A DNA stretch of 25,289 nucleotides from Steroidobacteraceae bacterium (GTDB lineage Bacteria > Pseudomonadota > Gammaproteobacteria > Steroidobacterales > Steroidobacteraceae): the NCBI GenBank assembly GCA_035458405.1, contig DATHZW010000293.1:1-25289 (forward strand), in the 5' to 3' direction. Of the stretch, positions 8,928-24,136 are shown one piece after another. Each line of letters begins with the position of its first letter. The stretch's first letter is position 1. The position numbers and the translations under genes are program-made. The notes under the pieces are model-generated. The model was not told the DNA's origin. It searched no databases and saw nothing but the letters and a program-made list of their open reading frames with translations.

Positions 8928-10199
8928 CTATTCAGTCGGCTCCGGAAGGCGGCCCGAGCTGTCGGTGGAGCGGACCCAGGCCAGGAACGTCGCCACGCCG
9001 TTGACGGCGTTGACGCAACGGATCGAATGAAAGAGGTCGAAGGCGTGCTGCGCTCCGTAGAGTTCCGCGTAGGCCACCGGCTGGCAGGACACCCGGCGCA
9101 GCGCCGCCACGAACCGGCGTCCTCCCTCCGGCCAGACGAGCGAGTCATGCGACCCGTGCAGGACGAGGAACGGCGGCGCCTCGGCGTGGACACAGCGGAT
9201 CGGCGAGGCGCGCTCCCACTCGTCCCGCTCGTCCCGCGGGCTGGACTTCATGACCAGCCTTTCCACGAAGCTTGGACGCGACGACTGCGCCACGTCTTCG
9301 CCGTTGTGCTCCAGGAAGTCGAAGGCGCCGTAGAAGGGCACCGCCGCGACCACGGAGGTGTCGATGTCCTCGAAGCCGGGCTGGTACTGCGGATCGTTTG
9401 CGGTCAGGGCGACCAGCGAGGCGAGGTGCCCGCCGGCCGAGCCACCGGTCACCGCCAGGAACCCGGGATCGCCGCCGTAGTCGGCGATGTTCTCGCGGAT
9501 CCAGCGGATCGCCAGCTTGCAGTCGATGAGATGCTCCGGAAACGTCGCCTGCGGGCTGCGGCGGTAGTTCGGCGCGACACAGACCCAGCCCTGTCGCGCC
9601 ATCTCGTTCATCAGCGGCACGCCCTGGTCGTCCTTCCGGCCGAGGACCCATGCGCCGCCATGGATCTGCAGCAGCACCGGACAGCCGTGGGCGTGGCCGC
9701 GCGGCCGGTAGACATCCAGCCGGTTGCGCCGTCCAGCCGGACCGTAGACGATGTCCTTGACGCGCTCCACGTGCTCCCGGTCGTTGACGCGAAACGGCCT
9801 GACCCAGCGCGCGAACGGCGCGCCGGCCCTGAGCCCGGTGGCCCACTCCGGGCGGATGCCCTGGAAGAACCGCGCGCCAAGGCCTTCCTGCAGGCCGCGG
9901 TCGATCGCAGGCTGAGATTTCAGCGAGCGCCAGTGGAGCCGCAGCAGCAGCACCCAGGACGCCGCGACGAACGCCAGGCCGGCCCAGCCCTGCCAGTGAT
10001 CCAGGGCGCCCCACCAGGCAAAGACGGCCGTCACCAGCGCCGACAGCGCCATGTGGTGCAGCGGCAGCTCGGCGACCGGCCAGGCGACGAGGAAATACAG
10101 CGGACCCTGGCCCGGCGGCCAGCGGCCACGCGAAACGGCGACTGCCGTGCCGAAGGCACCCCAGGCAGCCAGGACCAGGTAGAGCCACGCCGCGATCAT
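8928..10199 (-). CDS. HSL-family alpha/beta hydrolase (esterase/lipase) with N-terminal membrane segments
   Basis: Oxyanion motif IHGGAW, nucleophile elbow GGSAGG, HG.HD (Asp) and QHAFD (His). The first ~90 aa contain 3-4 hydrophobic helices. ATGA-type overlap with the HMG-CoA reductase stop. Confidence 0.92.
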   Translation of the reverse strand: MIAAWLYLVLAAWGAFGTAVAVSRGRWPPGQGPLYFLVAWPVAELPLHHMALSALVTAVFAWWGALDHWQGWAGLAFVAASWVLLLRLHWRSLKSQPAIDRGLQEGLGARFFQGIRPEWATGLRAGAPFARWVRPFRVNDREHVERVKDIVYGPAGRRNRLDVYRPRGHAHGCPVLLQIHGGAWVLGRKDDQGVPLMNEMARQGWVCVAPNYRRSPQATFPEHLIDCKLAIRWIRENIADYGGDPGFLAVTGGSAGGHLASLVALTANDPQYQPGFEDIDTSVVAAVPFYGAFDFLEHNGEDVAQSSRPSFVERLVMKSSPRDERDEWERASPIRCVHAEAPPFLVLHGSHDSLVWPEGGRRFVAALRRVSCQPVAYAELYGAQHAFDLFHSIRCVNAVNGVATFLAWVRSTDSSGRLPEPTE

Positions 10200-11377
10200 G
10201 GCGCCGGTCGGTTGCGCCCGAGCCGCTCGTGGCTGGTGACCCAGTCGCCCGCGATGACGGAGCAGCCGAGCGAGATGTCACCTGCGAGCACGACTGCGGC
10301 GGCGATCTCTGCGAGCTTGTCGGCGGTGCCGGCGCCGTCGCAACCGAGAATCTTCAGGCATTCCTGCTGCGTGGGCAGGCCGGTGCCGCCGCCGCGCGTG
10401 CCGACGATGACGGACGGAAGCGTCACGGACCAGTAGTAGTCGCCGTTGTCACGGTACTGGGCGTAGGTGATCCCGGCATGGCACTCCGCGACGTTGGCCG
10501 CATCCTGGCCCGTCGCGATGAACAGGGCGGCGAGGCCGTTCGCGGCGTGGGGGCCGTTGTAGGTGGCGCCGGCCTGCATCGCCCCGGCGTTGGCGATGTT
10601 CCGGGCCCGGAACAGGGCCGAGGTCTCGACCCGCATGACGCGCCTGAGCACCTCGGCCGGGATGACGATCTCCGCGATCACGCGGCGCCCGCGCGAACGG
10701 ATGAGATTCATCGCCGAGTGTTTCTTGTCGGTGTCGGTGGCCCCCGACAGCATGTACTCCGGATGCAGCGGGTGGGCCTCGCGCAGCCACTCGCAGGCCG
10801 CATGGGTGGCCTTGCCGGTCATGTTCTGGCCCGCGGCGTCGCCGGTCGTGTAGTTGAAGCGCGTGTGCAGCAGGTTGCCGACGTTGTATTGCTCGATCTC
10901 GACCAGCCGGCCGTAGCCGGTCGTGCCTTCGGCGACCTGCCGGACCTCCTCGAAGCTCGCCGCGAGCCACTGGCCGAAGTCGCGGGCCTGCAATGCGTCG
11001 GCAAAGATGAACACCGGCGCGCGCTGCATCGACGTCTTGACGATTGTCGCCCTGACGCCGCCGCTCTCGGTGATCACGCGCGCGCCGCGGCTGTAGCTGG
11101 CGACGAGCGTGCCCTCGGTCGTGGCAAGCGGGATGTAGAAGTCGCCCCGCGCGTGCTCACCTATGATCCTGAGGGGCCCGGCCAGCCCGACCGGGACCTG
11201 GGCGACGCCGATCAGGTTCTCGACGTTGCCTGCCGTGAGGCCGGGATCGAAGGACAGGCGGGGCAGGTGCTCGAGCGAAGCCCCGGTTTGCTCCTCCAGG
11301 AATTCACGGCGACGCCGCAGCGCGGCGGCCGAGTAGTCATCCTGTGGATTGCGCGGAATCGGGATGCGCTCGCTCAT
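10196..11377 (-). CDS. hmgA: class I hydroxymethylglutaryl-CoA reductase
   Basis: 393 aa from MSERIPIPR (11377). ENLIG, PLATTEGTLVAS (Glu), GDAAGQNM, SGATDTDKK (Lys), TGQD (Asp), GTRGGGT and SHERLGR (His). All four catalytic positions of class I HMGR are recognisable. Confidence 0.92.
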   Translation of the reverse strand: MSERIPIPRNPQDDYSAAALRRRREFLEEQTGASLEHLPRLSFDPGLTAGNVENLIGVAQVPVGLAGPLRIIGEHARGDFYIPLATTEGTLVASYSRGARVITESGGVRATIVKTSMQRAPVFIFADALQARDFGQWLAASFEEVRQVAEGTTGYGRLVEIEQYNVGNLLHTRFNYTTGDAAGQNMTGKATHAACEWLREAHPLHPEYMLSGATDTDKKHSAMNLIRSRGRRVIAEIVIPAEVLRRVMRVETSALFRARNIANAGAMQAGATYNGPHAANGLAALFIATGQDAANVAECHAGITYAQYRDNGDYYWSVTLPSVIVGTRGGGTGLPTQQECLKILGCDGAGTADKLAEIAAAVVLAGDISLGCSVIAGDWVTSHERLGRNRPAP

Positions 11378-11838
11378 GGCGCCCGCCTCCCCGGTGCCGA
11401 GTCCATGCGAAACGCGAACGGCAGCAACTCGCCTATCGGCGCGGCACGCATCGCCGGACCCGGCCACGCGAAATGGACCAGGACGTCTGGCCCCAGCGCG
11501 AGCTCGCTGATGCGCTGGCGACAGCCACCGCAGGGGGAAATGCAGAAGGGCTCGCCGTCGTCGGTCTCGGCCCAGACGCCGACCTCGGCGATCCTGAACC
11601 CGGCGCCCTCCGCCAGGACGCCCGCGGCAATCGCCGCCGGTTCAGCGCAGTTGCCCAGGGGAAAGGCCGCGTTCTCGACGTTGCAGCCCGAGTAGATGCG
11701 CCCCGCCTGTGACAGCACGGCCGCGCCGACGTGGACGCCGGAACGCGACGCATAGGCCTGCCGCGCTGCTGACCGGGCGGCGTCGATCAACGCGTCCCGC
11801 GTGGCATCGTTTCCGGGCAACAGGCGAACGGCTTCCAT
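11374..11838 (-). CDS. cdd: homotetrameric-type cytidine deaminase
   Basis: GCNVENAAF, CAE, PCGGCRQ and LLPFAF motifs. The N-terminal AYAPYS motif is altered to AYASRS. Confidence 0.88.
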   Translation of the reverse strand: MEAVRLLPGNDATRDALIDAARSAARQAYASRSGVHVGAAVLSQAGRIYSGCNVENAAFPLGNCAEPAAIAAGVLAEGAGFRIAEVGVWAETDDGEPFCISPCGGCRQRISELALGPDVLVHFAWPGPAMRAAPIGELLPFAFRMDSAPGRRAP

Positions 11839-12378: not shown

Positions 12379-13100
12379 GTAGGCCTCCTCGGAACCGGGG
12401 CAGGCCCTGACGATCGTCACGGGCGCCCCGCCATTCCCTGCAGTCACCCTGCTGCCAACTTACGCCGGCCCGGGCGGCGCGTCTGCCGGGACTTGCCGAA
12501 TCTCCCGGGGCACACTGCGGCCGCCGGATGCCCGCACTGCCGGCGGGCGACGTGAAGGTCTGCCGCGCAGTCGCCGCGGAGACCGTCGAGCCCGGTTCTT
12601 CAGGCGCCGGGCCGACAGCGCCATCGTCCACGGGCTGTCGGCCGCGCGCTGCGGCTAGGATCGTTTTCGGGGCGGCGAGGTCGTACAGGGCAACTTCGAC
12701 AACTGTCCCGTGCTGCGCGTCAGCGAGCTGCCAAGAGTCGAGTTGCACCTTGTCGGCGGCACCACGAAGGCTACCGGCATCGACGGGGCGGGAGGCGCCG
12801 CCTCGCGGCCCGCCACCGCATCGGGTAACCAGCCCTTCAGGCCCGGGGGAGACGCATGGACTGCTCCCCGCTTGCGGCGTATCCGGGTTCCTCCGCCACC
12901 CAGGTGGTCGAGGCACGCCGGTTCGTGACAGCCCACCTGGCGGGAATACGTACAAACCACGGTCGGGAGTGAGACTCGTTATCCCATCGGACGTCGCAGC
13001 GAGCGCAGAATCTTTTCGGAACGCCAGGTACAAGAACGCTTTTCAAGGCGACGGCGGTAACCGTGACGGTGCCGCCAGGACGACCAGGGAGGGGACGTTC

Positions 13101-13661
13101 ATGGTGGCCGTACTCCATTTCCCGGACGCACCGCAGGCCGCCGCGCTGGCGGCGCTCGTGACGGAGGGCCGGCGCGCCGCAGAGAACACCCTGGCTTCCC
13201 TGTTCTACGACAGCGTGCGATCGTTCCTGTCGTCACACACGCGCGACCCGTACGCCGCCGGCGAACTGGCCGACGACGTCCTCATGGCGGCGCTGCTGGC
13301 GCTGCGCAGGGGCGTGGTCCGTGATCCGGGGAAGATCGGCGCCTTCATCCACGGCATCGCGGTTCACGTGGCCAACAGCCACCGGCGCCGCCAGCATCGG
13401 CAATTGCCCTCGCGCAGCCTCAGCGGCGACATCCCCGATGCGATTGCCGCGGACCAGGTCGCCCAGGCCGACCAGCTGGATGCCGTGCATCGCGTGCTCG
13501 AGGCGCTCGAGGAGACCGACCGCCGCATCCTGGGGATGCTGCTGGACGAGGGCCTGAGCGAGCGCGAGGTCGCCGAGCGCATGTCGCTCAAGGTTGCCAC
13601 CGTGCGCCAGCGCAAGAGACGGATGATCCTCAAGCTGGGCGCACGGCTGCGCGACCACTAG
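13101..13661 (+). CDS. ECF-type sigma-70 factor
   Basis: Region 2-like segment (AGELADDVLMAALLALRRG...AFIHGIAVHVANSHRRR) and region 4.2 HTH (DRRILGMLLDEGLSEREVAERMSLKVATVRQRKRR). GGAGGGG SD before ATG at 13101. Confidence 0.85.
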   Translation: MVAVLHFPDAPQAAALAALVTEGRRAAENTLASLFYDSVRSFLSSHTRDPYAAGELADDVLMAALLALRRGVVRDPGKIGAFIHGIAVHVANSHRRRQHRQLPSRSLSGDIPDAIAADQVAQADQLDAVHRVLEALEETDRRILGMLLDEGLSEREVAERMSLKVATVRQRKRRMILKLGARLRDH

Positions 13662-14173: not shown

Positions 14174-14202
14174 TTGCGGTAACCGCCGCCTCGGGGTAGA
14201 AG
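14174..14202 (+). promoter_or_regulatory. possible sigma70 promoter TTGCGG-N17-TAGAAG overlapped by the palindrome GCGGTAACCGC
   Basis: -35-like TTGCGG at 14174-14179, exactly 17-nt spacer, -10-like TAGAAG at 14197-14202 (lacks the final T). It lies about 50 nt upstream of the nfnA-like start. Confidence 0.3.
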
Positions 14203-14253: not shown

Positions 14254-15159
14254 ATGACCACGCCCGGTACTGAGTCTAAATATGAAATCGTCGCGCGCGA
14301 GGACTTTTCCGACGTCACTTACCTGCTGGAAGTGAGTCACCCGCGCATGGCGCGGGCTGCAAAGCCGGGCCAGTTCGTGATCGTCATGTCGCACGCCGAA
14401 GGCGAGCGCATTCCGCTGACCATCGCCGACTTCGACCGCAAGAAGGGCACCATCACGCTGGTCATCCAGGCGGTCGGCAAGACCACCAAGGAAATGCAGC
14501 GCGACTGCAAGCTGGGCACCCGGCTGCACGCGCTGGTCGGGCCCATGGGCATCCCCAGCCACATCGGCGAGGCCAGGAAGGTGCTGTGCGTCGGTGGCGG
14601 CCTCGGCGTGGCGCCGGTCTTCCCGCAGGCGCGCGGCTTCAAGGAAGCCGGCGCCTACGTGATCGGCGTGCTTGGCTTCCGCAACAAGGACCTGGTGTTC
14701 TGGGAGGACAAGTTCCGCGGCGTCTGCGACGAACTGATCCTCTGCACGGATGACGGCTCGGCCGGCATCAAGGGCATGGTGACCGACGGCATGAAGCTGG
14801 CCATCGACAAGCACCCGGACATCGACGAGTGCGTCGCGATCGGCCCGCCGATCATGATGAAGTTCTGCGCCGCGACCACCAGGCCGCACGGCATCAAGAC
14901 CATGGTCAGCCTCAACCCGGTCATGGTCGACGGCACCGGCATGTGCGGCGGCTGCCGCGTCAAGCTCGACAGCGGCATCAAGTTCGCCTGCGTCGACGGG
15001 CCGGACTTCGACGGCCACGAGGTGGATTTCGACGACCTGATGTCGCGCCTCGGCCGCTATCGCGAGACCGAGCAGAAGGCAATGGCCCGATTCGAGGAAA
15101 GTTGCCACATGCGCGAAGACTTCGTGGCAGCCTCCGCCCAGGAAGCCAAGCCGGGCTGA
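14254..15159 (+). CDS. nfnA: NfnA/SudB-like FAD/NAD-binding [2Fe-2S] subunit (sulfide/dihydroorotate dehydrogenase-like)
   Basis: PGQFVIV, ERIPLTIAD, GPMG, GGGLGVAP, DGTGMCGGCRV...FACVDGPDFDGH (Asp/Cys3 [2Fe-2S] motif). Start is probably MTTPG at 14254. Confidence 0.9.
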   Translation: MTTPGTESKYEIVAREDFSDVTYLLEVSHPRMARAAKPGQFVIVMSHAEGERIPLTIADFDRKKGTITLVIQAVGKTTKEMQRDCKLGTRLHALVGPMGIPSHIGEARKVLCVGGGLGVAPVFPQARGFKEAGAYVIGVLGFRNKDLVFWEDKFRGVCDELILCTDDGSAGIKGMVTDGMKLAIDKHPDIDECVAIGPPIMMKFCAATTRPHGIKTMVSLNPVMVDGTGMCGGCRVKLDSGIKFACVDGPDFDGHEVDFDDLMSRLGRYRETEQKAMARFEESCHMREDFVAASAQEAKPG

Positions 15160-15213
15160 GCCGCACGTCGCACCGAGACAACCCGGACCCCACAGACACA
15201 CCACGGCAGGACC

Positions 15214-16746
15214 ATGGCAGCCAAGAAGCGGACCATCAGGACCATCCCCCAGGAACGCACGCCCATGCGCGAGCAGGATCCCGCGGAACGCGCCAGGAAC
15301 TTCCTGGAAGTGGCCTGCGGCTATTCGCTCGAGGACGCGCTGCGCGAATCCGAGCGCTGCCTCATGTGCGCGGACGAGCCCTGCGTGCGCGGCTGCCCGG
15401 TGAGCATCGACATCCCGGCCTTCATCAAGCAGATCGGCGAGAAGAATTTCCACGGCGCCTACGACGTCATCACCAACACCAACCTGCTGCCGGCCGTCTG
15501 CGGCCGCGTCTGCCCGCAGGAGAACCAGTGCGAGGGCGTCTGCACCGTGGCCGATTCGCTCGAACCGGTCGCCATCGGCCGGCTCGAGCGCTTCGTGGGC
15601 GACATGGCCATTGCCGAGGGCTGGAGCAACGTTCCCTACATCGAGCCGAGCGGCTTCAGGATAGGCATCGTCGGTTCCGGGCCCGCAGGCATGGCCTGCG
15701 CCGCGGACATGGCCAAGGCCGGCTGCGACGTGACCGTGTTCGAGGCCTTCCACGAGGCCGGCGGCGTGCTCAAGTACGGCATCCCGGACTTCCGCCTGCC
15801 CAACACCGTCGTGGACGCCGAACTCGGCAAGCTGATCGAGCTCGGCATCAAGTTCGAGTGCGACACCCTCGTCGGCCGGCTGTTCACCATCGAGGAGATG
15901 ATCGAGGAGATGGGCTTCCACGCCGTCTTCATCGGCACCGGCGCCGGCTACCCGAGCTTCATGGGCATTCCCGGCGAGTCGCTCAACGGCGTGCTCTCGG
16001 CCAACGAGCTGCTGACGCGCTGCAACCTGATGCACGGACGCGACCCGGAGCGCTACGACACGCCCCTGCCGCCGAGCAAGAACGTCGCGGTGATCGGCGC
16101 GGGCAACACCGCCATGGACGCGCTGCGCGTCAGCATGAGGCTCGGCGCGGAGAACGTGCATTGCATCTACCGCCGCAGCCGCGCCGAGGCGCCGGCGCGG
16201 GCCGAGGAGATCCACCACGCGGAAGAGGAAGGCGTCCAGTTCCACTGGCTGACCAACCCGCTGGAAATCCTCGACGACGGCAACAACAAGGTCCGCGGCC
16301 TGCGCTGCATCCGCATGGAGCTGGGGGAGCCCGACGAGTCCGGCCGGCGCCGCCCGGTCCCGGTCCCCGGCAGCGAGTTCGACTTCGAGGCGGACCTGGT
16401 CGTGTACGCCATCGGCACCAACGCCAACCCGATCATCGGCCAGACCTCGGGACTCGAGCTCAACAAGTGGGGCTATATCGCCACCGACGAGAACCTCGCG
16501 ACCTCGATCGCCGGCGTGTTCGCGGGCGGCGACATCGTCACCGGCGCGGCCACGGTCATCGAGGCGATGGGCGCAGGCCGCAAGGCGGCCCGCGGCATGA
16601 AGCAATGGCTCGGCCTGCGCGACACCGTCGAGGCCTTCGACGAAACCGGCAACCTGGACCGCGTCTTCGGCCTCGACGCACGCGAGCATGGCTTCGCCCT
16701 GGTGCGAGTCCCGCGTGACACAAGCTCTTCCAAGGCGGCTTCCTGA
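15214..16746 (+). CDS. nfnB: NfnB/SudA/GltD-like NADP(H)-binding flavoprotein with two [4Fe-4S] clusters (usually annotated gltA)
   Basis: RCLMCADEPCVRGCPV, CGRVCPQENQCEGVC, GSGPAG (FAD), YGIPDFRLP, GAGNTAMD plus YRRS (NADP type), GVFAGGDIVTG. No glutamate synthase large subunit in the window. Confidence 0.9.
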   Translation: MAAKKRTIRTIPQERTPMREQDPAERARNFLEVACGYSLEDALRESERCLMCADEPCVRGCPVSIDIPAFIKQIGEKNFHGAYDVITNTNLLPAVCGRVCPQENQCEGVCTVADSLEPVAIGRLERFVGDMAIAEGWSNVPYIEPSGFRIGIVGSGPAGMACAADMAKAGCDVTVFEAFHEAGGVLKYGIPDFRLPNTVVDAELGKLIELGIKFECDTLVGRLFTIEEMIEEMGFHAVFIGTGAGYPSFMGIPGESLNGVLSANELLTRCNLMHGRDPERYDTPLPPSKNVAVIGAGNTAMDALRVSMRLGAENVHCIYRRSRAEAPARAEEIHHAEEEGVQFHWLTNPLEILDDGNNKVRGLRCIRMELGEPDESGRRRPVPVPGSEFDFEADLVVYAIGTNANPIIGQTSGLELNKWGYIATDENLATSIAGVFAGGDIVTGAATVIEAMGAGRKAARGMKQWLGLRDTVEAFDETGNLDRVFGLDAREHGFALVRVPRDTSSSKAAS

Positions 16747-16779
16747 CAGGCCATGGCCCGAGGCAAGTAGCAGCACATC

Positions 16780-18702
16780 ATGAACGCCATCTCAGCAGCA
16801 GAAACCACCCCGAAGGCCGCCCGGCCGCGGTCCAGGGCGCCGAAGAAGGCCGTCAGGATCAGCGAGCACATCGTCGAGATCGTCAGCGACTCCGGCGAGG
16901 GCGCGCAGCGCTGCGGCCAGTCGCTGGGCTCGATCGCCGCCAGGATGGGCAACGGCGTCTGGACGGTCGAGATCATTCCCGCCGAGATCCAGCCGCCGGC
17001 ACGCAGCGTCGCCGGCGCCAGCGGCAACCGCATCCGGCTCGGCTCGAAGGCCATCAACAACGGCGGCGACCAGGCCGATCTGGTGATCGCCTTCAACGAA
17101 CAGGTCCTGCTCGGGCGCGTCCGCGGCGGCGAACTGAAGCGCGGCTGCGTCATCCTGCTCGAGAGCATGTGGAGCGAGCACCGCGACGCTGGCGTCCGCG
17201 CCGCGTATGCGGAGACCCTCGGGCACCTGCAGGAGGACGGGTTCCGCGTCATCGAGGTGCCGCTGGAACGCGAGTGCCTGAAGCTCGTGCCCGACGCCCG
17301 CAAGGGCAAGAACATGTTCGTGCTGGGCATGCTGTGCAGCATCTACAGCCTCGACGTGGAACTCGGGCGCGAGCAGGTGGCCTTCGCCCTGAAGAAGAAG
17401 GACCGCAAGGTCGTCGAGGCCAACCAGGGCCTGCTGGACGCCGGGTTCGCCTGGGCCGAGGAAAACCTCGACATCAAGTTCTCGATCCCGGCGGTCAAGG
17501 CCACCGAACCGCAGATCGTAGTCAACGGCAACACCGCACTCGCACTCGGCGTGCTGGCCTCGGGCATGGAAATCTGCGCCATGTACCCGATCACGCCGGC
17601 CACCTCGGTGTCGCATTACCTGAGCGACGTGTTCGAGCGCGTCGGCGGGCTGGTACACCAGGCCGAGGACGAGATTGCTGCCGCCGCGTTCACGATCGGC
17701 GCGTCCTACGCCGGCAAGTGCGCGCTGACCGTGACCTCCGGCCCCGGCTACTCGCTCAAGCAGGAGGCCATCGGGCTGGCCGTGATGGCCGAGATTCCGA
17801 TGGTCATCATCAACGTGCAGCGCGGCGGCCCCAGCACCGGGCAGCCGACCAAGGTGGAGCAAGGGGACCTGCTGACGGTCATGTACGGCAGCCACGGCGA
17901 CGCGCCCAAGGTGGTGCTGGCGCCGTCGAGCATCGAGGAGTGCTTCTACTCGGTGATTACGGCGCGAAAGATCGCCGAGACATTCAACATGGTCGTGGTG
18001 ATCCTCACGGATTCCAGCCTGGCCGCGTCGCAGACGCCGCTGCCGCGGCCGAAGTTCAACGAGGAGTGGCTGGCGCCGCCGATCGACCAGAGCCCCGTGC
18101 CAGCCGGCGCCAAGCCCTACGACTGGGATGAGTTCACCGGGCTGTTCAGGCGCTTCGCGCCCGGCCAGCCGGGCGGCATGCACACCATCACCGGCCTGGC
18201 GCACGACCGCTCCAGCCGCGTCGCCTACGACCCGTCCTCCAACGAGGAGGGCCTGCGGCATCGCAGCCTGAAGCTCGCGGCATTGCAGAAGACCCTGACC
18301 ACACCCTCGGTCTTCGGCGAGGACGAGGGCGACCTGCTGCTGATCGGCTGGGGCAGTACGCGCGGCGCGATCGAGGAGTCCGTGACCCGGTTGCGCGCGG
18401 AAGGCCACCGCGTCTCGTCGTTGCACCTGACCTTCCTGCAGCCGATGCCCTCCGGTATCGGCGAGATCATCAAGCGCGACAAGCGCGTCATGACCATCGA
18501 GAACAACTGGTCGGACCGCCTGCAGGACGACATCATCGACCATGAAAACCGGCGCTACTCGGCCCTCGCCTGGTTGCTGCGGGCGCGCTACCTGGTCGAC
18601 ATCGACTGCTGGAGCGAGTCGCGCGGCCAACCGATCAAGCCCAGCGACATCTGCAACGAGGTCCGCTCGAGGCTCGAGCGCACCGGGAGTAACAAGGCAT
18701 GA
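16780..18702 (+). CDS. korA: 2-oxoacid:ferredoxin oxidoreductase alpha subunit (gamma-alpha fusion, KorA-like)
   Basis: N-terminal gamma domain (DSGEGAQRCG, NMFVLG), YPITP, QAEDEIAA, TSGPGYSLKQE, QRGGPSTGQPTK, GWGSTRGAI. Substrate specificity cannot be fixed from sequence alone. Confidence 0.92.
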   Translation: MNAISAAETTPKAARPRSRAPKKAVRISEHIVEIVSDSGEGAQRCGQSLGSIAARMGNGVWTVEIIPAEIQPPARSVAGASGNRIRLGSKAINNGGDQADLVIAFNEQVLLGRVRGGELKRGCVILLESMWSEHRDAGVRAAYAETLGHLQEDGFRVIEVPLERECLKLVPDARKGKNMFVLGMLCSIYSLDVELGREQVAFALKKKDRKVVEANQGLLDAGFAWAEENLDIKFSIPAVKATEPQIVVNGNTALALGVLASGMEICAMYPITPATSVSHYLSDVFERVGGLVHQAEDEIAAAAFTIGASYAGKCALTVTSGPGYSLKQEAIGLAVMAEIPMVIINVQRGGPSTGQPTKVEQGDLLTVMYGSHGDAPKVVLAPSSIEECFYSVITARKIAETFNMVVVILTDSSLAASQTPLPRPKFNEEWLAPPIDQSPVPAGAKPYDWDEFTGLFRRFAPGQPGGMHTITGLAHDRSSRVAYDPSSNEEGLRHRSLKLAALQKTLTTPSVFGEDEGDLLLIGWGSTRGAIEESVTRLRAEGHRVSSLHLTFLQPMPSGIGEIIKRDKRVMTIENNWSDRLQDDIIDHENRRYSALAWLLRARYLVDIDCWSESRGQPIKPSDICNEVRSRLERTGSNKA

Positions 18703-19679
18703 CCAGCAACGCGACTCACTGCCTCGAGCGCATGTACGAGGACCGTCACGCCCTGGAGGACTACCAGGCCGGCGTGCCGCGCTGGTGCACCGGCTGCGGC
18801 GACAACGCCATCCTGACCGCCGTCCAGAGGCTGTGCCGGGATGAAGACCTGCGGCCGGAGAAGACCGTGTTCGTGTCGGGCATCGGCTGTTCCAGCCGCT
18901 TCCCGCACTACATGAAGACCTATGGCTTCCACGGCATTCACGGCCGCGCCCTGCCCATTGCGCAGGGCATCAAGATGGCTCGCCCCGACCTGAACGTGTT
19001 AATCAATACCGGCGACGGCGACTGCTGCAGCATCGGCGCCGGCCACTGGATCCACGCGATCCGCTACAACATGAACATGACGCTGCTGCTGCACGACAAC
19101 AACATCTACGGGCTGACCAAGAAGCAGGCGTCTCCGACGTCGCCGCTCGGCACCAGGAGCAACACCACGCCGCGTGGCGCCTACCTCGACGCGCTCAACC
19201 CGCTGACCGTGACGCTGGGCGTGCAGAACGCATCCTTCGTGGCGCAGGCGGTGGACTGGATCCCGGACCTGATGTACGACATCGTCTCGGCGGCCTTCCA
19301 CCACAAGGGCTTCTCCTTCGTGCGCATCCTGCAGCGCTGCCCGGTATTCATGCCGAAGGTCTTCGACACCTGGCTCAACGACACCCAGAAGTCGCTGATC
19401 CTGACCCACGACGACGGAATCCGGCCAGGCGCGGCGATCAGCAAGATCTACCGCAACCAGCTCGAACACGACCCTTCCGACATCGATCGGGCGCGGGAGA
19501 TCGCCTCCTGCCACGACCCGGTCCCGGTCGGAATCCTCTATCGCAACCCCGCGGTCCCCTGCTACGAGGAAATCCGCGGGGCTGGCGCCCAGCGCGCCCC
19601 CGAGATGGTCCGCAACGGCCTCGAGGCGGAGTTCGACAAGTTCACGGTCTGGCCGGAGGGCCAGCAGCCCGCGGCCTGA
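18699..19679 (+). CDS. korB: 2-oxoacid:ferredoxin oxidoreductase beta subunit (TPP-binding, KorB-like)
   Basis: WCTGCGD, SGIGCSSR, HGRALP.A.G, GDGD (TPP/Mg), NNIYGLTKKQASPT, QRCP. ATGA overlap with the alpha subunit. Confidence 0.94.
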   Translation: MTSNATHCLERMYEDRHALEDYQAGVPRWCTGCGDNAILTAVQRLCRDEDLRPEKTVFVSGIGCSSRFPHYMKTYGFHGIHGRALPIAQGIKMARPDLNVLINTGDGDCCSIGAGHWIHAIRYNMNMTLLLHDNNIYGLTKKQASPTSPLGTRSNTTPRGAYLDALNPLTVTLGVQNASFVAQAVDWIPDLMYDIVSAAFHHKGFSFVRILQRCPVFMPKVFDTWLNDTQKSLILTHDDGIRPGAAISKIYRNQLEHDPSDIDRAREIASCHDPVPVGILYRNPAVPCYEEIRGAGAQRAPEMVRNGLEAEFDKFTVWPEGQQPAA

Positions 19680-19727
19680 CGCGGGCCCGGGGAACGACCA
19701 CAAACAGACAGACGCCAGATCCAAACA

Positions 19728-21941
19728 ATGAACGCGAACGCGCAACTGCAGACCGTGTTTCACCTCACCGGCCGGCCGCCTGCCGCGCCGCTACAGGCGA
19801 TCAGCAAGCTCGGGCTGCGCCCGGCGATGCTGGCCCGCTACCGCGACCTGTCGCGCCTGCGTTACGACTTCCCGCTGGTGCTGATCCAGCCGGCGGCCGG
19901 CGGGCGCCTGGCGCGCTCGCTCAGCGACGTCGTCAACGAATTCGTGCGCAACAAGGTGCCTGCCGGGACGCCCGGCGAGGCCATGCGCCGGCAGCTGCTG
20001 CACGTGGAGCATGAAATTCGCCGCGCGGTCAGCAGCGGCGCCACCGGCCGGCTGTCGGACTTGTGGGGAATGGCGGTGGAGCGGGTCACGGCGAGCGCGG
20101 ACGCGCAGCTGGCGGACGCCCTGCGCAACGCCGGCCGCGCGCTGCCGGCGGACGGGGAAGTCATCGACTGCGACGAGGCGATGGCGGGAAAGCTCCTCGC
20201 GCACGCCTGGCGCGTCGTCCAGGGCGAGAAGCTGGGCCAGGTCCGCAAGGACATCAACGGCCTGACCGTCAGGTTGACCGACATCCTGCGGGCGGAATTC
20301 GTCCGCTCGGAGGCGGGGCGCACGCCGGAAAGCCTCAGGGTATCGGTCGGAACCGAGCAGCAGGGCCTCTTCGACTTCAACATGATGGCCCGGATGCTCG
20401 CGCTCGGGTCGCCGGCCAGCTGCCTGTCGAGTGCGCGCCGCAAGCGCATCGAGTGGGCCCTCGGCGTGCTGCGCTCGCAGCAATTCTTCCCCGCAGTGCC
20501 TGCCGTGGAGGACGACAACACCTACGAATTTTCCTTCGGCTCCTGCCGCGAGGTGCAGCAGGCGTTCCGCGAGCGCCTGCCGCGCATGGCCGAGCTGGTC
20601 AAGGCCATGTCGATCGCCGAGCTCGAGGGCGACGGCCGCTACGACGAGTCGCGTCATGACGCCTTCTTCGACGGCTTCGACGCCAACTCGCTGTCGCCGA
20701 AGGACATGGAGATCTGCCCCGCCTATTTCGTCCGCCTGCGCGGCCGGCCGGCCGGCGCCGCGACCGAAGGCAACCTGCTGGAACTGCTCTCGTCGGGCAT
20801 ACCGGTCAAGGTGCTGGTGGAGGCGGACGATCTCCTCGAGGAGTCCTCCCTCGGCCAGGCGCAGTTCGCTTGCGGCGTCCGCAGCGTGCAGCTTGCCAGC
20901 CTGGCGGTCGGGCTGAGCGACACCTTCGTGCTGCAGTCCACGAGCTCCAACCTGCCGGCGCTGCATGACCGGCTGCGAAGGGGCCTGGGCGTGGCCGGTC
21001 CTGCGCTGTTTTCCGTGTACACGCCCTCCGCGGCCCACCTGGGCCACCTTCCGCACTACCTCGTGGGCGCCGCCGCGATGCAGTCGCGCGCCTTTCCCGC
21101 GTTTACCTATGACCCGTCGGCGGGCGCCGACCTGGCGTCCCGGTTCTCGCTGGAAAACAACCCGCAACCCGACCGCGACTGGCCGGCCATGCGGTTCGAT
21201 TACGCGGACGAGAAGCTCCAGCGCATCACCGAGGACCTGGCGTTCACGCTGGCCGACTTCGTCGCCGTCGATCCCCGCTATGCGCGCCACTTCGCGCGCG
21301 TGCCGCATTCGGCCTGGGACGATCACATGGTGCCCATCGCCGAGTGGCTCGCCGGTCCCGCAGGTTCGAACAACAGCCGGGTCCCCTACCTGCTGGCGGT
21401 CGACGCCGGTGACGGGCTGCAGCGGCTGATCGTGGACGACCGGCTGGCCCGGGCCGCCCGCCGCTGCCTGGACGAATGGCACCGGCTGCAGGAGCTGGGC
21501 GGCATCAACAACTCGCATGCCGAGCGCCTGCTCGCCCGCGAGCGGGCCGCCTGGGAGGAGCAGAAACGCGAGGAGATCGAGGCCCTCGCGGGCGCAGCCG
21601 CGGCGGCTGCGGCGCCCGCCGCCGAGGCGGTTCCCGCGGCCGCGGCCCCGGCAGAGGTTCCGGAGGCCGCCGAGGCCGAGCCCGAGCGCTCGCCGGACGA
21701 GGCCTACATCGAGACCATCCGTTGTTCGACCTGCAACGAGTGCACGCAGATCAACGACAAGATGTTCGCCTACAACGACAACAAGCAGGCCTACATCAAG
21801 GACATCAAGGCGGGCACCTACCGGCAGATGATCGAGGCGGCCGAGAGCTGCCAGCTCGGCATCATCCATCCCGGCAAGCCGATCGACCCGAAGGAGCCGG
21901 GCCTCGAGGAACTGCTGGAGCGCGCCAAGCCGTTCATGTAG
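19728..21941 (+). CDS. 737-aa protein: unknown N-terminal region + degenerate PFOR TPP-domain-like region + Ala/Pro/Glu linker + C-terminal monocluster ferredoxin
   Basis: C-terminal C666-x2-C669-x2-C672...C708 (CSTCNEC...AESC). The central segment aligns by eye with the PFOR C-terminal domain (LLELLSSGIPVKVLV; GPALFSVYTPS; FPAFTYDP). Codon usage looks native. Confidence 0.82.
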   Translation: MNANAQLQTVFHLTGRPPAAPLQAISKLGLRPAMLARYRDLSRLRYDFPLVLIQPAAGGRLARSLSDVVNEFVRNKVPAGTPGEAMRRQLLHVEHEIRRAVSSGATGRLSDLWGMAVERVTASADAQLADALRNAGRALPADGEVIDCDEAMAGKLLAHAWRVVQGEKLGQVRKDINGLTVRLTDILRAEFVRSEAGRTPESLRVSVGTEQQGLFDFNMMARMLALGSPASCLSSARRKRIEWALGVLRSQQFFPAVPAVEDDNTYEFSFGSCREVQQAFRERLPRMAELVKAMSIAELEGDGRYDESRHDAFFDGFDANSLSPKDMEICPAYFVRLRGRPAGAATEGNLLELLSSGIPVKVLVEADDLLEESSLGQAQFACGVRSVQLASLAVGLSDTFVLQSTSSNLPALHDRLRRGLGVAGPALFSVYTPSAAHLGHLPHYLVGAAAMQSRAFPAFTYDPSAGADLASRFSLENNPQPDRDWPAMRFDYADEKLQRITEDLAFTLADFVAVDPRYARHFARVPHSAWDDHMVPIAEWLAGPAGSNNSRVPYLLAVDAGDGLQRLIVDDRLARAARRCLDEWHRLQELGGINNSHAERLLARERAAWEEQKREEIEALAGAAAAAAAPAAEAVPAAAAPAEVPEAAEAEPERSPDEAYIETIRCSTCNECTQINDKMFAYNDNKQAYIKDIKAGTYRQMIEAAESCQLGIIHPGKPIDPKEPGLEELLERAKPFM

Positions 21942-21947
21942 GTCGTG

Positions 21948-21975
21948 GCGGTGCCAGGCACGTGCTTGACACCTC
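21948..21975. repeat. 28-bp REP-like imperfect palindrome, copy 1
   Basis: GCGGTGCCAGGCA-CG-TGCTTGACACCTC. Matches copy 2 at 23 of 28 positions (hand count). Begins 6 nt after the upstream stop codon. Confidence 0.75.
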
Positions 21976-22019
21976 CCGCTTGTTTAGACTCCCGGTACCA
22001 CGCAGAACGGGAGCCGACC

Positions 22020-23174
22020 ATGACGAGCAATCCTGCCGCCTCGCCGCGGACTCGCCCATCTCTCTTCGCGGCCGCCGCACTGCTGCTGGCCGCCACGCTG
22101 GCATTGCCGGCGAACTCAGCCGACTGGGTGACCGACGCCGAGACCGCGGCCATCATCCAGCGTCTCGGGCTCATCGAGTCGCCGGCGCCGGTTCGCGAGC
22201 GCGCCGGATGGCGGAAGCCAGAGCGAATCCTGGTCGTGCAATACGATCCCGCGCGGATCGAATGGCTGCAGCAGGCCGTGCCGGACGTGAAACTCGTCGC
22301 CGTCGACAGCGTCGCGGCAGCCGTGGCGGCCGCCCCGGAAGCCGACGCAATCATCGGCATCTGCAACCAGGACGTCTTTGCGGCCGGTCCCCGCATTGCA
22401 TGGGTCCAGATCCTGTCGGCCGGCGCCGAGCGCTGCGTATCCGTGCCGGCCATCGGCGAACGCGACATCCTGCTGACCAACATGCAGCGCATCTCCGGCC
22501 CGGTGATGTCCGAGCACGTGCTGGCCATGATGCTGGCGCTGGGCCGCGGCCTTCCGGCATACCTCGACGCGCAGCGCGATGGCCGCTGGGACCGGGAACT
22601 CGTGCCTGACGGCCGCATGTGGGCCATGGAGGGCAAGACGGTGCTGGTCGTCGGCCTCGGCGGCATCGGCGTCGAGGTGGCAAGGCGCGCCCACGCCCTG
22701 GGCATGAAGGTCACGGCGATCCGCGCCAGCGGGCGGACGGGACCCGGGTTTGTGTCGAAGGTCGGGCTGCCCGCGGAAATGCCGCAGTTCGCCGCGACCG
22801 CCGATTTCGTCGTGAATACCACCCCGCTGACCGACGCCACGCGCGGCATGTTCGACGCGGATTTCTTCGACTCGATGCATCGCGGCGCTTACTTCATCAA
22901 CGTCGGACGCGGCCAGAGCGTCGTCACCGACGCCCTGGTCGCGGCGCTGCGCTCGGGGCAGGTCGGAGGCGCCGGGCTCGATGTCACGGACCCCGAACCG
23001 CTGCCATCCGATCATCCCCTGTGGCGGCTGCCCAACGTGATCGTCACGCCGCACGTCTCCGGGCAGTCCGACCTGGGCAACGAGGACCACTGGCGAATCA
23101 CGCGCGAGAACCTGGGCCGCTACGTGGCCGGCGGCAGGATGCTGTCGGTCGTGGATCCGGCCAGGGGCTACTGA
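22020..23174 (+). CDS. D-2-hydroxyacid dehydrogenase family protein with apparent N-terminal signal peptide
   Basis: Rossmann motif VGLGGIG, catalytic Arg (INVGRG), Glu (DVTDPEP) and His (TPHVSG). N-terminus MTSNPAASPRTRPSLFAAAALLLAATLALPANS/A. GGGAG SD before 22020. Confidence 0.92.
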   Translation: MTSNPAASPRTRPSLFAAAALLLAATLALPANSADWVTDAETAAIIQRLGLIESPAPVRERAGWRKPERILVVQYDPARIEWLQQAVPDVKLVAVDSVAAAVAAAPEADAIIGICNQDVFAAGPRIAWVQILSAGAERCVSVPAIGERDILLTNMQRISGPVMSEHVLAMMLALGRGLPAYLDAQRDGRWDRELVPDGRMWAMEGKTVLVVGLGGIGVEVARRAHALGMKVTAIRASGRTGPGFVSKVGLPAEMPQFAATADFVVNTTPLTDATRGMFDADFFDSMHRGAYFINVGRGQSVVTDALVAALRSGQVGGAGLDVTDPEPLPSDHPLWRLPNVIVTPHVSGQSDLGNEDHWRITRENLGRYVAGGRMLSVVDPARGY

Positions 23175-23554: not shown

Positions 23555-24136
23555 ATGAACCTGCCCGACGCCGAGGTCGACTACCTCCCCGGCGTGTTCG
23601 AACCGTCGCTGGCCGATGAGCTCTTCCGGACCCTGCGGCAGGACGTCGCCTGGCAGCAGGAGGAAATCCTCATGTTCGGGCAACGCCGGCGCGTGCCCCG
23701 CCTCGTCGCCTGGTACGGCGACCCGGGCGCGGAATACAGCTACTCCGGCGTCCTTCACCAGCCCAGGCCGTGGATACCGGCCCTGCAGCGCATCCGCGGG
23801 ACCGTGGAGGAACTCGCCGGCCAGCGCTTCAACTCCGTGCTGCTGAACCTGTACCGCGACGGACGCGACGGCATGGGCTGGCATTCCGACGACGAGCCCG
23901 AGCTGGGGCCCGACCCGGTCATCGCTTCCGTGTCGCTGGGCGCCACGCGCCACTTCCGCATGCGCCACAAGAAGCAAAGGGGCGAGACCATGGGCATCGA
24001 CCTGGAGCACGGCAGCGTGCTGCTGATGCGGGGCCCCACGCAGCATCACTGGCTGCACGCCGTGCCCAAGACGACCCGGCCGGCCGGCGAACGCATCAAC
24101 CTGACCTTTCGCCTGGTATCGCCGGCCAGCGGCTGA
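23555..24136 (+). CDS. AlkB-family (ALKBH2/3-like) Fe(II)/2-oxoglutarate dioxygenase
   Basis: 193 aa from MNLPDAEV. PRLVAWYGD, YSYSG, FNSVLLNLYRDGRDGMGWHSDDE (HxD), HAVPK (His), RINLTFR. Confidence 0.93.
   Translation: MNLPDAEVDYLPGVFEPSLADELFRTLRQDVAWQQEEILMFGQRRRVPRLVAWYGDPGAEYSYSGVLHQPRPWIPALQRIRGTVEELAGQRFNSVLLNLYRDGRDGMGWHSDDEPELGPDPVIASVSLGATRHFRMRHKKQRGETMGIDLEHGSVLLMRGPTQHHWLHAVPKTTRPAGERINLTFRLVSPASG

Follow-up and report, generated by a model that had tools for sequence, protein, structure and literature searches.

A probable PFOR-derived ferredoxin adaptor is encoded with KorAB and an NfnAB-type pair in a conserved five-gene operon of a Steroidobacteraceae bacterium

A contig of 25,289 nucleotides from a Steroidobacteraceae bacterium (GCA_035458405.1, DATHZW010000293.1, forward strand; hereafter the window) carries a five-gene operon, nfnA-nfnB-korA-korB-X, which encodes an NfnAB-type transhydrogenase pair, a two-subunit 2-oxoacid:ferredoxin oxidoreductase (OFOR) and a fifth protein, here called X. 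X is very likely a dead derivative of pyruvate:ferredoxin oxidoreductase (PFOR) that serves KorAB as a ferredoxin adaptor. For the operon as a whole we infer the substrate, the electron path, the bifurcation, the direction and the low-oxygen role, and favour with moderate confidence a wired, oxidative, bifurcating 2-oxoglutarate:NAD(P) oxidoreductase for low-oxygen life. All of the enzymes belong to known families; as far as searched, the adaptor and the wiring appear undescribed in the open literature, in which no description of the Nfn-linked five-gene operon was found.

Protein X and its ancestry

X (19728-21941, + strand; 737 aa) is encoded by the fifth gene, and its homologues, which number more than 3,000, are annotated as 'ferredoxin' or 'hypothetical'. 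Its only family match was to Fer4_13, at residues 663-714 within the last 75 residues, and a sequence search against the Protein Data Bank (PDB) returned the ferredoxin tail only; the core was therefore placed through giant PFORs and through its fold. Over 489 residues X shares 32% identity (E 4e-64) with the rear half of a PFOR of 1646 aa that likewise ends in a ferredoxin, and it is collinear with residues ~750-1646 of an uncharacterised, rnfB/rnfC-flanked giant PFOR, with arm, tether and ferredoxin included. In the alignment of X with the giant PFOR, two domain V cluster motifs, the proximal-cluster Cys and the thiamine pyrophosphate (TPP) motif are each deleted or replaced, and both the family matches and the alignment show that X is without PFOR domains I-III. 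None of the 223 X sequences has any of the TPP or core Fe-S motifs, which both the intact giants and the beta' subunits of the Magnetococcus marinus type retain.

The AlphaFold model of X (predicted local distance difference test, pLDDT, 84) comprises a rigid 600-residue core, a disordered tether and a ferredoxin. The core (residues 1-600; 19728-21527, + strand) has the character of a cofactor-less back half of a giant PFOR, with a domain IV-like start, deleted domain V clusters and the fold of PFOR domain VI, for which 6cin was the best match (Foldseek E 3.5e-5; Z 16.9, root-mean-square deviation 5.8, 278 aligned). This fold is common to X, the beta' subunit of the M. marinus alpha'beta' PFOR (Mmc1_1742), NifJ-type PFOR (6CIN, 1B0P) and the ~1650-aa PFORs, and the M. 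marinus beta' subunit is the nearest characterised relative of the X core; however, unlike these PFORs, X is without the alpha half, the domain V clusters, the proximal-cluster ligands and the TPP motif. A helical arm at residues 182-228 (20271-20411, + strand), an insertion with a predicted KorA contact, is absent from the M. marinus-type beta' subunit, and F215, D216 and F217 of its FDF motif are invariant or nearly so. No X-like subunit appears in the composition section of a 2026 PFOR review (PMC13768988).

The tether (21585-21695, + strand), composed of Ala, Pro and Glu, is predicted to be flexible from its composition and its low pLDDT, which falls below 50 at residues 627-652; across 58 homologues it is 16-52 residues long, with 38% Ala and 19% Pro. 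The single-cluster ferredoxin domain (21696-21941, + strand) has its CxxCxxC motif plus a distal Cys (Cys666, 669, 672 and 708) in a ferredoxin fold, and resembles Desulfovibrio africanus ferredoxin I by sequence and fold (Z 8.9). It is the best-conserved part of X, with a mean identity of 69% versus 34-51% elsewhere, and probably acts as a low-potential [4Fe-4S] carrier. One homologue (L217:11137-14070, + strand) bears three near-identical tandem ferredoxins on Ala/Pro linkers. The fifth protein had been described at the outset as a tethered ferredoxin; tether and ferredoxin both held, but the protein is more than a carrier, as its larger part is the cofactor-less back half of a giant PFOR. 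In a Gemmatimonadetes locus (L053:10016-10513, + strand), a 165-aa remnant corresponds to the end of X, the tether and the ferredoxin, and korAB is not nearby.

Conservation of the five-gene arrangement

The five open reading frames (ORFs) are codirectional and separated by exactly 54, 33, -4 and 48 bp, as first reported. With X as the query, species-representative genomes yielded 58 loci, of which 38 carried all five genes in the window order and one in a permuted order; korB-X followed by Rnf genes was found in four and intact PFOR relatives in three, and the remaining 12 were mostly truncated by contig ends. The hosts included Alpha-, Beta- and Gammaproteobacteria, Acidobacteriota, Verrucomicrobiota, Myxococcota and Actinomycetota. 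Because this search is blind to KorAB standing alone, metagenome loci were also searched from KorA (80 loci), and in the loci that were long enough X was present in 50/50, nfnB in 62/62 and nfnA in 47/47. In 400 genomes of the host class, all 10 other KorA proteins at ~55-72% identity, plus one frameshifted copy, were followed by korB and X, one of these loci being Nfn-type and the others Rnf-type or cut; three KorA proteins at 36-39% identity in the same genomes had no X nearby. Loci in these linkage counts are related by descent and hence non-independent. The five-gene arrangement is not due to chance, and the linkage runs both ways; the neighbourhood conservation that had been proposed as a check, and the idea of a self-contained module, are thus borne out by recurrent co-occurrence. 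In 400 genomes sampled across the phylum, giants and beta' subunits turned up and no further X, indicating that the module is patchy, and a plasmid search gave giant-PFOR-like matches only. Altogether, KorAB is the constant partner of X, and the electron sink varies, being Nfn here and RnfB, a degenerate giant PFOR and RnfCDG elsewhere.

The KorAB pair and its substrate

The alpha subunit KorA (16780-18702, + strand; 640 aa) has the domain order III-I-II and the beta subunit KorB (18699-19679, + strand; 326 aa) consists of domain VI, with the GDG..N TPP/Mg motif, four cluster Cys and Arg67. KorA passed its curated family cut-off (TIGR03710, 496 > 483); KorB scored 246 against TIGR02177, under the cut-off of 262, but matched TPP_enzyme_C and PFO_beta_C. 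By its motifs KorAB is an intact two-subunit OFOR, with the alpha and beta catalytic residues all present. The best PDB match of KorA was 6n2n_A, from the CO2-fixing 2-oxoglutarate enzyme of M. marinus (6N2N). The genes of that enzyme were recovered in an M. marinus locus (L114; G046:C1:2144000-2163999), where the beta subunit is identical to 6n2n_B; the locus encodes both the characterised two-subunit PFOR (677 + 558 aa) and the 2-oxoglutarate:ferredoxin oxidoreductase (OGOR; 573 + 292 aa).

KorAB resembles the M. marinus OGOR in its domain order (III-I-II plus VI), its one cluster and its catalytic residues, with identical partners to the YPITP Thr, the substrate Arg, Glu45-Ile46, the four cluster Cys, GDG..N and beta-Arg63. 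The YPITP Thr272, Arg348 and Glu69-Ile70 of KorA are invariant in 145 clade members, and GDG..N, the four cluster Cys and Arg67 of KorB, the last equivalent to Arg63 of the M. marinus OGOR, are invariant in 112; Sulfolobus enzymes have Lys at this position. Arg63 and Ile46 were reportedly tied to the choice of 2-oxoglutarate by Chen et al. in 2019. The preliminary description had left the substrate as 2-oxoglutarate or pyruvate; the OFOR assignment stood, and the residue matches to the M. marinus OGOR indicate that 2-oxoglutarate is probably the substrate rather than pyruvate. KorAB differs from the M. marinus enzyme in forming a separate clade (30-39% identity) that is always accompanied by X rather than relying on free ferredoxin.

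The NfnAB-type pair

The small subunit nfnA (NfnS; 14254-15159, + strand; 301 aa from ATG) is FAD/NAD-binding with a [2Fe-2S] site formed by Asp226, Cys231, Cys234 and Cys246, and the large subunit nfnB (NfnL; 15214-16746, + strand; 510 aa) is the bifurcating-FAD- and NADP(H)-binding subunit with two [4Fe-4S] clusters. Both passed curated family cut-offs (NF004862, 383 > 220, and TIGR01316, 569 > 472, respectively). Against solved chains, nfnB scored 540 bits with Thermotoga maritima NfnB, 476 with Pyrococcus furiosus NfnI and 290-300 with GltD-type glutamate synthase small subunits; nfnA scored 313 with the P. furiosus NfnI small subunit, 267 with T. maritima NfnA and 160 with the second P. 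furiosus pair (5vj7). The [2Fe-2S] ligands of nfnA (Asp + 3 Cys) are invariant in 85/85 clade members, and for nfnB 95-96 of 96 clade members retain Arg194, Glu125, eight Cys and the YRR..RxEE NADP motif; the Glu of nfnB is presumably a [4Fe-4S] ligand. In the alignment, the T. maritima counterpart of Arg194 is Arg187, the residue bound to N5 of the bifurcating FAD (PMC6405883). The initial assignment of an NfnAB-type pair was upheld, as scores, ligands and nfnA-first adjacency mark a genuine NfnI type, and the likeness to NfnAB/NfnI of T. maritima (4YLF/4YRY) and P. furiosus (5JCA) extends to gene order, cofactor ligands, the bifurcating-FAD Arg and the NADP motif. In contrast to these systems, the pair here belongs to one operon with a dedicated OFOR and a captive ferredoxin, and its hosts are oxygen-respiring bacteria of soil and freshwater; in published surveys, Nfn is listed almost exclusively from anaerobes (PMC6085437, PMC6405883).

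The operon contains neither a glutamate synthase large subunit gene nor a small ferredoxin gene, as noted previously; gltB lies beside a GltD-like gene elsewhere in the host genome (contig C5), as does a 7Fe-type FdxA (contig C303). A role for nfnB as a glutamate synthase small subunit was rejected, given the absence of a large-subunit partner and the 540 bits with NfnB versus 290-300 with GltD. In Azoarcus/Thauera-type denitrifying aromatic degraders, a GltD-like third subunit is said to make KorAB NADP-linked, and we take that subunit to be a single GltD-like flavoprotein with extra C-terminal Fe-S clusters and with neither NfnA nor X. Unlike that arrangement, the operon here includes NfnA, and its NfnB bears no additional Fer4. 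The precedent, which had been invoked for the operon, seems to concern a different system: the GltD-like + korAB operons form another clade, are 26-35% identical and occupy separate loci. A second, distant GltD-like + korA + korB operon lies downstream of X beside the five-gene operon in L002, L007, L012, L013, L031, L038, L043, L047, L049 and L054 and on the opposite strand in L174 and L198, and the host has its own operon of that type (contigs C357/C152).

Modelling of the KorA-X contact

A complex of KorA residues 240-635 (domains I-II) and X residues 1-600 was modelled from alignments of 56-58 rows each; KorB, KorA domain III and the second protomer were not part of the model. The model scored 0.80, and the best of three controls scored 0.00; the 0.80 mark was reached by 58/80 solved complexes and 2/110 mismatched pairs, rates that are approximate for these alignments. 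Model runs agreed in at least 89% of contacts, and partner pLDDT was at least 81. The modelled contact joins X 182-228 and 301-304 to KorA 386-401, 424-464, 501-507 and 551-557 (predicted docking site, KorA residues 386-557; 17935-18450, + strand), off the TPP-binding face. Because the contact runs through the insertion arm of X and not through the PFOR alpha/beta face, it is unlikely that the model merely reproduces a solved PFOR. Inter-protein covariation across 99 paired loci (effective number 77) gave a mean Z of 0.0 for predicted pairs, and three of the top 200 pairs fell in the interface sets versus one expected. The model supports binding of the X core to KorA, and X likely binds KorAB stably. 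Of the earlier suggestion of one supercomplex, to be checked by AlphaFold-Multimer, the KorA-X pair alone gained support from modelling.

Upstream region and neighbouring genes

Relatives were scanned upstream of nfnA for FNR-type boxes, defined as TTGA-N6-TCAA with at most one mismatch. Such boxes were present in 58/80 relatives, versus 4.5 in dinucleotide shuffles and 8/80 downstream control stretches; CRP and Rex boxes showed no enrichment in the relatives. In the window, FNR, CRP and Rex boxes did not occur above chance, and a strict consensus scan of the window returned no promoter and no terminator. A putative sigma70-type promoter, TTGCGG, 17 nt, TAGAAG (14174-14202, + strand), preceded by a short AT-rich element, was read by eye. 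Promoter-like spacing and hexamers with an AT-rich element upstream of nfnA are common to L001, L004, L019, L071, L072, L140, L145, L170, L182, L191, L231 and L234, which have no FNR box.

Upstream of the operon lies a gene for an extracytoplasmic function-type sigma factor (13100-13661, + strand), and after it comes a short hydrophobic ORF that matches no Pfam family. Directly after X lies a D-2-hydroxyacid dehydrogenase gene (21945-23174, + strand) whose product has a hydrophobic, signal-like N-terminus; it was rejected as a member of the module, as it stands behind X in same-genus loci only. A 3-hydroxy-3-methylglutaryl-CoA reductase gene (10196-11467, - strand) lies among cdd, deoC, deoA, deoB, deoD and an esterase gene.

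Related architectures

Four arrangements of the relevant genes were distinguished: rnfB, an intact giant PFOR with a ferredoxin tail and rnfCDG (architecture A); korA, korB, X, rnfB, a second giant that has two Fe-S clusters and has lost its catalytic motifs and tail, and rnfCDG (B); the nfnA-nfnB-korA-korB-X operon of the window (C); and an intact giant PFOR followed by fused nfnB-nfnA (D). The Rnf-linked 'PFOR' proteins of 1300-1570 aa (L046:13186-17847, L050, L070, L218-L224 and L227) have lost the YPITP, TPP and proximal-cluster motifs in 11/11 cases and kept two Fe-S clusters; they are likely mis-annotated as active. Intact PFORs of ~1685 aa followed by fused nfnB-nfnA of the PRK12779 family (L116:5380-13342, L119 and L074) constitute a second, independent pairing of the PFOR family with Nfn, in which the Cys motif of the C-terminal tail differs.

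In a quick tree, which included intact giants (L052, L069, L115, L116 and L119) and intact beta' subunits (L057, L114, L117, L118, L120 and L121), all X proteins fell in one well-supported group, with Nfn-linked X (99) nested among Rnf-linked X. The simplest account is that a giant PFOR was duplicated and decayed into scaffolds as catalysis passed to KorAB, and that NfnAB later replaced Rnf and the second giant, with X being kept. Survival of the X core through the exchange of Rnf for Nfn points to KorAB as its binding partner.

The gene order of the tubeworm-symbiont reductive tricarboxylic acid cycle (rTCA) 'cluster 2' (korA, korB, por-like, rnfB, por) is that of architecture B (PMC6315080 supplement). 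The 'por-like' gene is most likely an X orthologue, and its 'por' partner matches the degenerate giant. The tubeworm cluster differs from the window operon in being linked to Rnf and not Nfn, and the paper names the 'por-like' gene without treating it as a dead adaptor.

Host context

The host genome (85% complete) encodes the E1 components of 2-oxoglutarate dehydrogenase (OGDH) and pyruvate dehydrogenase, two PntB, two heme-copper oxidases, NarG, RuBisCO and one citrate synthase, and additionally three other OFOR loci and the free FdxA. A facultative host had been proposed from an AlkB-family gene near the operon; that gene (ORF ~23580-24136, + strand) was verified by a 2OG-FeII_Oxy_2 match, and the gene content agrees with the proposal. 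By its genes, the host is a facultative respirer of oxygen and nitrate, in which the module would be an added route and not the sole one. The large subunit of the host RuBisCO (G000:C182; L235:1802-3289) has an intact catalytic motif, and the host may be a facultative Calvin-cycle autotroph. A second citrate-synthase domain of the ATP citrate lyase (ACL)/citryl-CoA-lyase type was not found in the 85% complete genome. With a Calvin-cycle RuBisCO and no such domain found, reductive carboxylation for carbon fixation, which had been offered as an alternative use of the operon, is disfavoured.

Discussion

In the proposed mechanism, KorAB would convert 2-oxoglutarate and CoA to succinyl-CoA and CO2, and since KorAB has one Fe-S cluster, each electron must go to a ferredoxin. 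The pseudo-enzyme core of X would dock on the outside of KorA by its helical arm and hold the mono-cluster ferredoxin on a swinging tether; that ferredoxin would ferry low-potential electrons to NfnAB, which would turn reduced ferredoxin and NADH into 2 NADPH. The net reaction would be 2-oxoglutarate + CoA + NADH + 2 NADP+ -> succinyl-CoA + CO2 + NAD+ + 2 NADPH, at low oxygen. The potentials are about -0.49 V for 2-oxoglutarate, -0.28 V for NADH and -0.37 V for NADPH, and from such textbook values the coupled bifurcating reaction comes to ~ -6 kJ/mol and the simple non-bifurcating one to ~ -23 kJ/mol; at ~ -6 kJ/mol the coupled reaction is near equilibrium and therefore reversible. By analogy only, the arrangement recalls the swinging arm of E2 lipoyl domains, in which a small carrier on an Ala/Pro linker, in one to three copies, is held by a scaffold; however, there is no homology, and X would carry single electrons and not acyl groups.

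This small free energy, together with the CO2-fixing M. marinus OGOR being the closest solved KorA, would also suit the opposite direction, in which NfnAB would use NADPH to form both NADH and reduced ferredoxin, and KorAB would turn succinyl-CoA into 2-oxoglutarate by carboxylation, either to dispose of electrons or to supply glutamate under anoxia. That direction is unlikely: the host has RuBisCO and was not found to have the ACL/citryl-CoA lyase domain, the tubeworm Rnf-linked version adjoins citrate synthase and has been argued to run in the oxidative direction too (PMC6315080 Text S1), and mono-cluster ferredoxins are usually less reducing than 2x[4Fe-4S] ferredoxins, which are reported best for CO2 reduction (PMC12337175). 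It is very improbable that NfnAB works as a simple ferredoxin:NADP+ reductase, or with some other high-potential acceptor, within an ordinary 2-oxoglutarate:NADP+ oxidoreductase that does not bifurcate. Such a reaction would be the more favourable one energetically and would have a precedent in P. furiosus NfnII, which has no NAD-dependent activity (PMC6405883), but nfnA is kept in every testable locus, its FAD/NAD and [2Fe-2S] residues are invariant, and its score is nearly twice as high with NfnI as with the second P. furiosus pair.

KorAB might also act on other or several 2-oxoacids (pyruvate, 2-oxoadipate, branched or aromatic ones) and link amino-acid or aromatic breakdown to NADPH, as it shares only about 30-39% identity with the M. 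marinus OGOR that has been characterised, and archaeal two-subunit enzymes are broad (PMC13768988); this is scarcely probable, as the M. marinus Arg63 equivalent is present in all 112 KorB proteins, where Sulfolobus has Lys, and Rnf-linked relatives cluster with gltA and sucCD (PMC6315080 supplement). Improbable, too, is the absence of any stable complex, with X an oversized soluble ferredoxin bearing a relic core, through which the three enzymes meet transiently. The X core does diverge faster than its neighbours (~45-50% identity versus 70-75% for KorAB and NfnAB), the Gemmatimonadetes remnant retains tether and ferredoxin without korAB, and conservation at the predicted KorA contact is not enriched; against this, the 600-residue core persists at full length in several phyla and has dozens of invariant residues, no full-length core lacked this KorAB clade among the loci seen, and the KorA-X pair passes a controlled complex test by modelling.

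The wired, oxidative, bifurcating oxidoreductase that is favoured here draws support from the two-way linkage, from catalytic residues that are intact in KorAB and NfnAB and lost in X, from the KorA-X model, from the homologue with three ferredoxins and from the FNR-type boxes of relatives. Several points weigh against it. The window copy and its closest kin are without an FNR box, and the need for the module is not obvious, as OGDH, two PntB, three other OFOR loci and FdxA reach the same products. Bifurcating Nfn activity is not readable from sequence alone, as P. furiosus NfnII illustrates. The docking site might be buried in the complete tetramer, and clade specificity at the KorA contact residues does not exceed that of KorA residues drawn at random (p 0.36). 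A further step, in which KorAB, X and NfnAB form one stable ferredoxin-captive bifurcating complex and X is a general plug that wires the KorAB clade to Nfn for NADPH or to Rnf for an ion gradient, is put forward tentatively and is itself rather doubtful.

Electron bifurcation has been seen as a trait of strict anaerobes, and OFORs have been thought to use a free ferredoxin pool. The module places an NfnI-type enzyme in common oxygen- and nitrate-respiring bacteria of soil and wetland, and it seems to replace the free pool with a captive carrier, offering a testable case of electron channelling via a swinging Fe-S domain. It also offers an explanation for an unnamed family of more than 3,000 proteins and a new reading of the tubeworm 'por-like' gene, and it could give engineered cells a self-contained set of five genes with which to supply NADPH or fix CO2. 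If the single complex proved true, oxygen-respiring bacteria would gain a bifurcating bypass of 2-oxoglutarate dehydrogenase.

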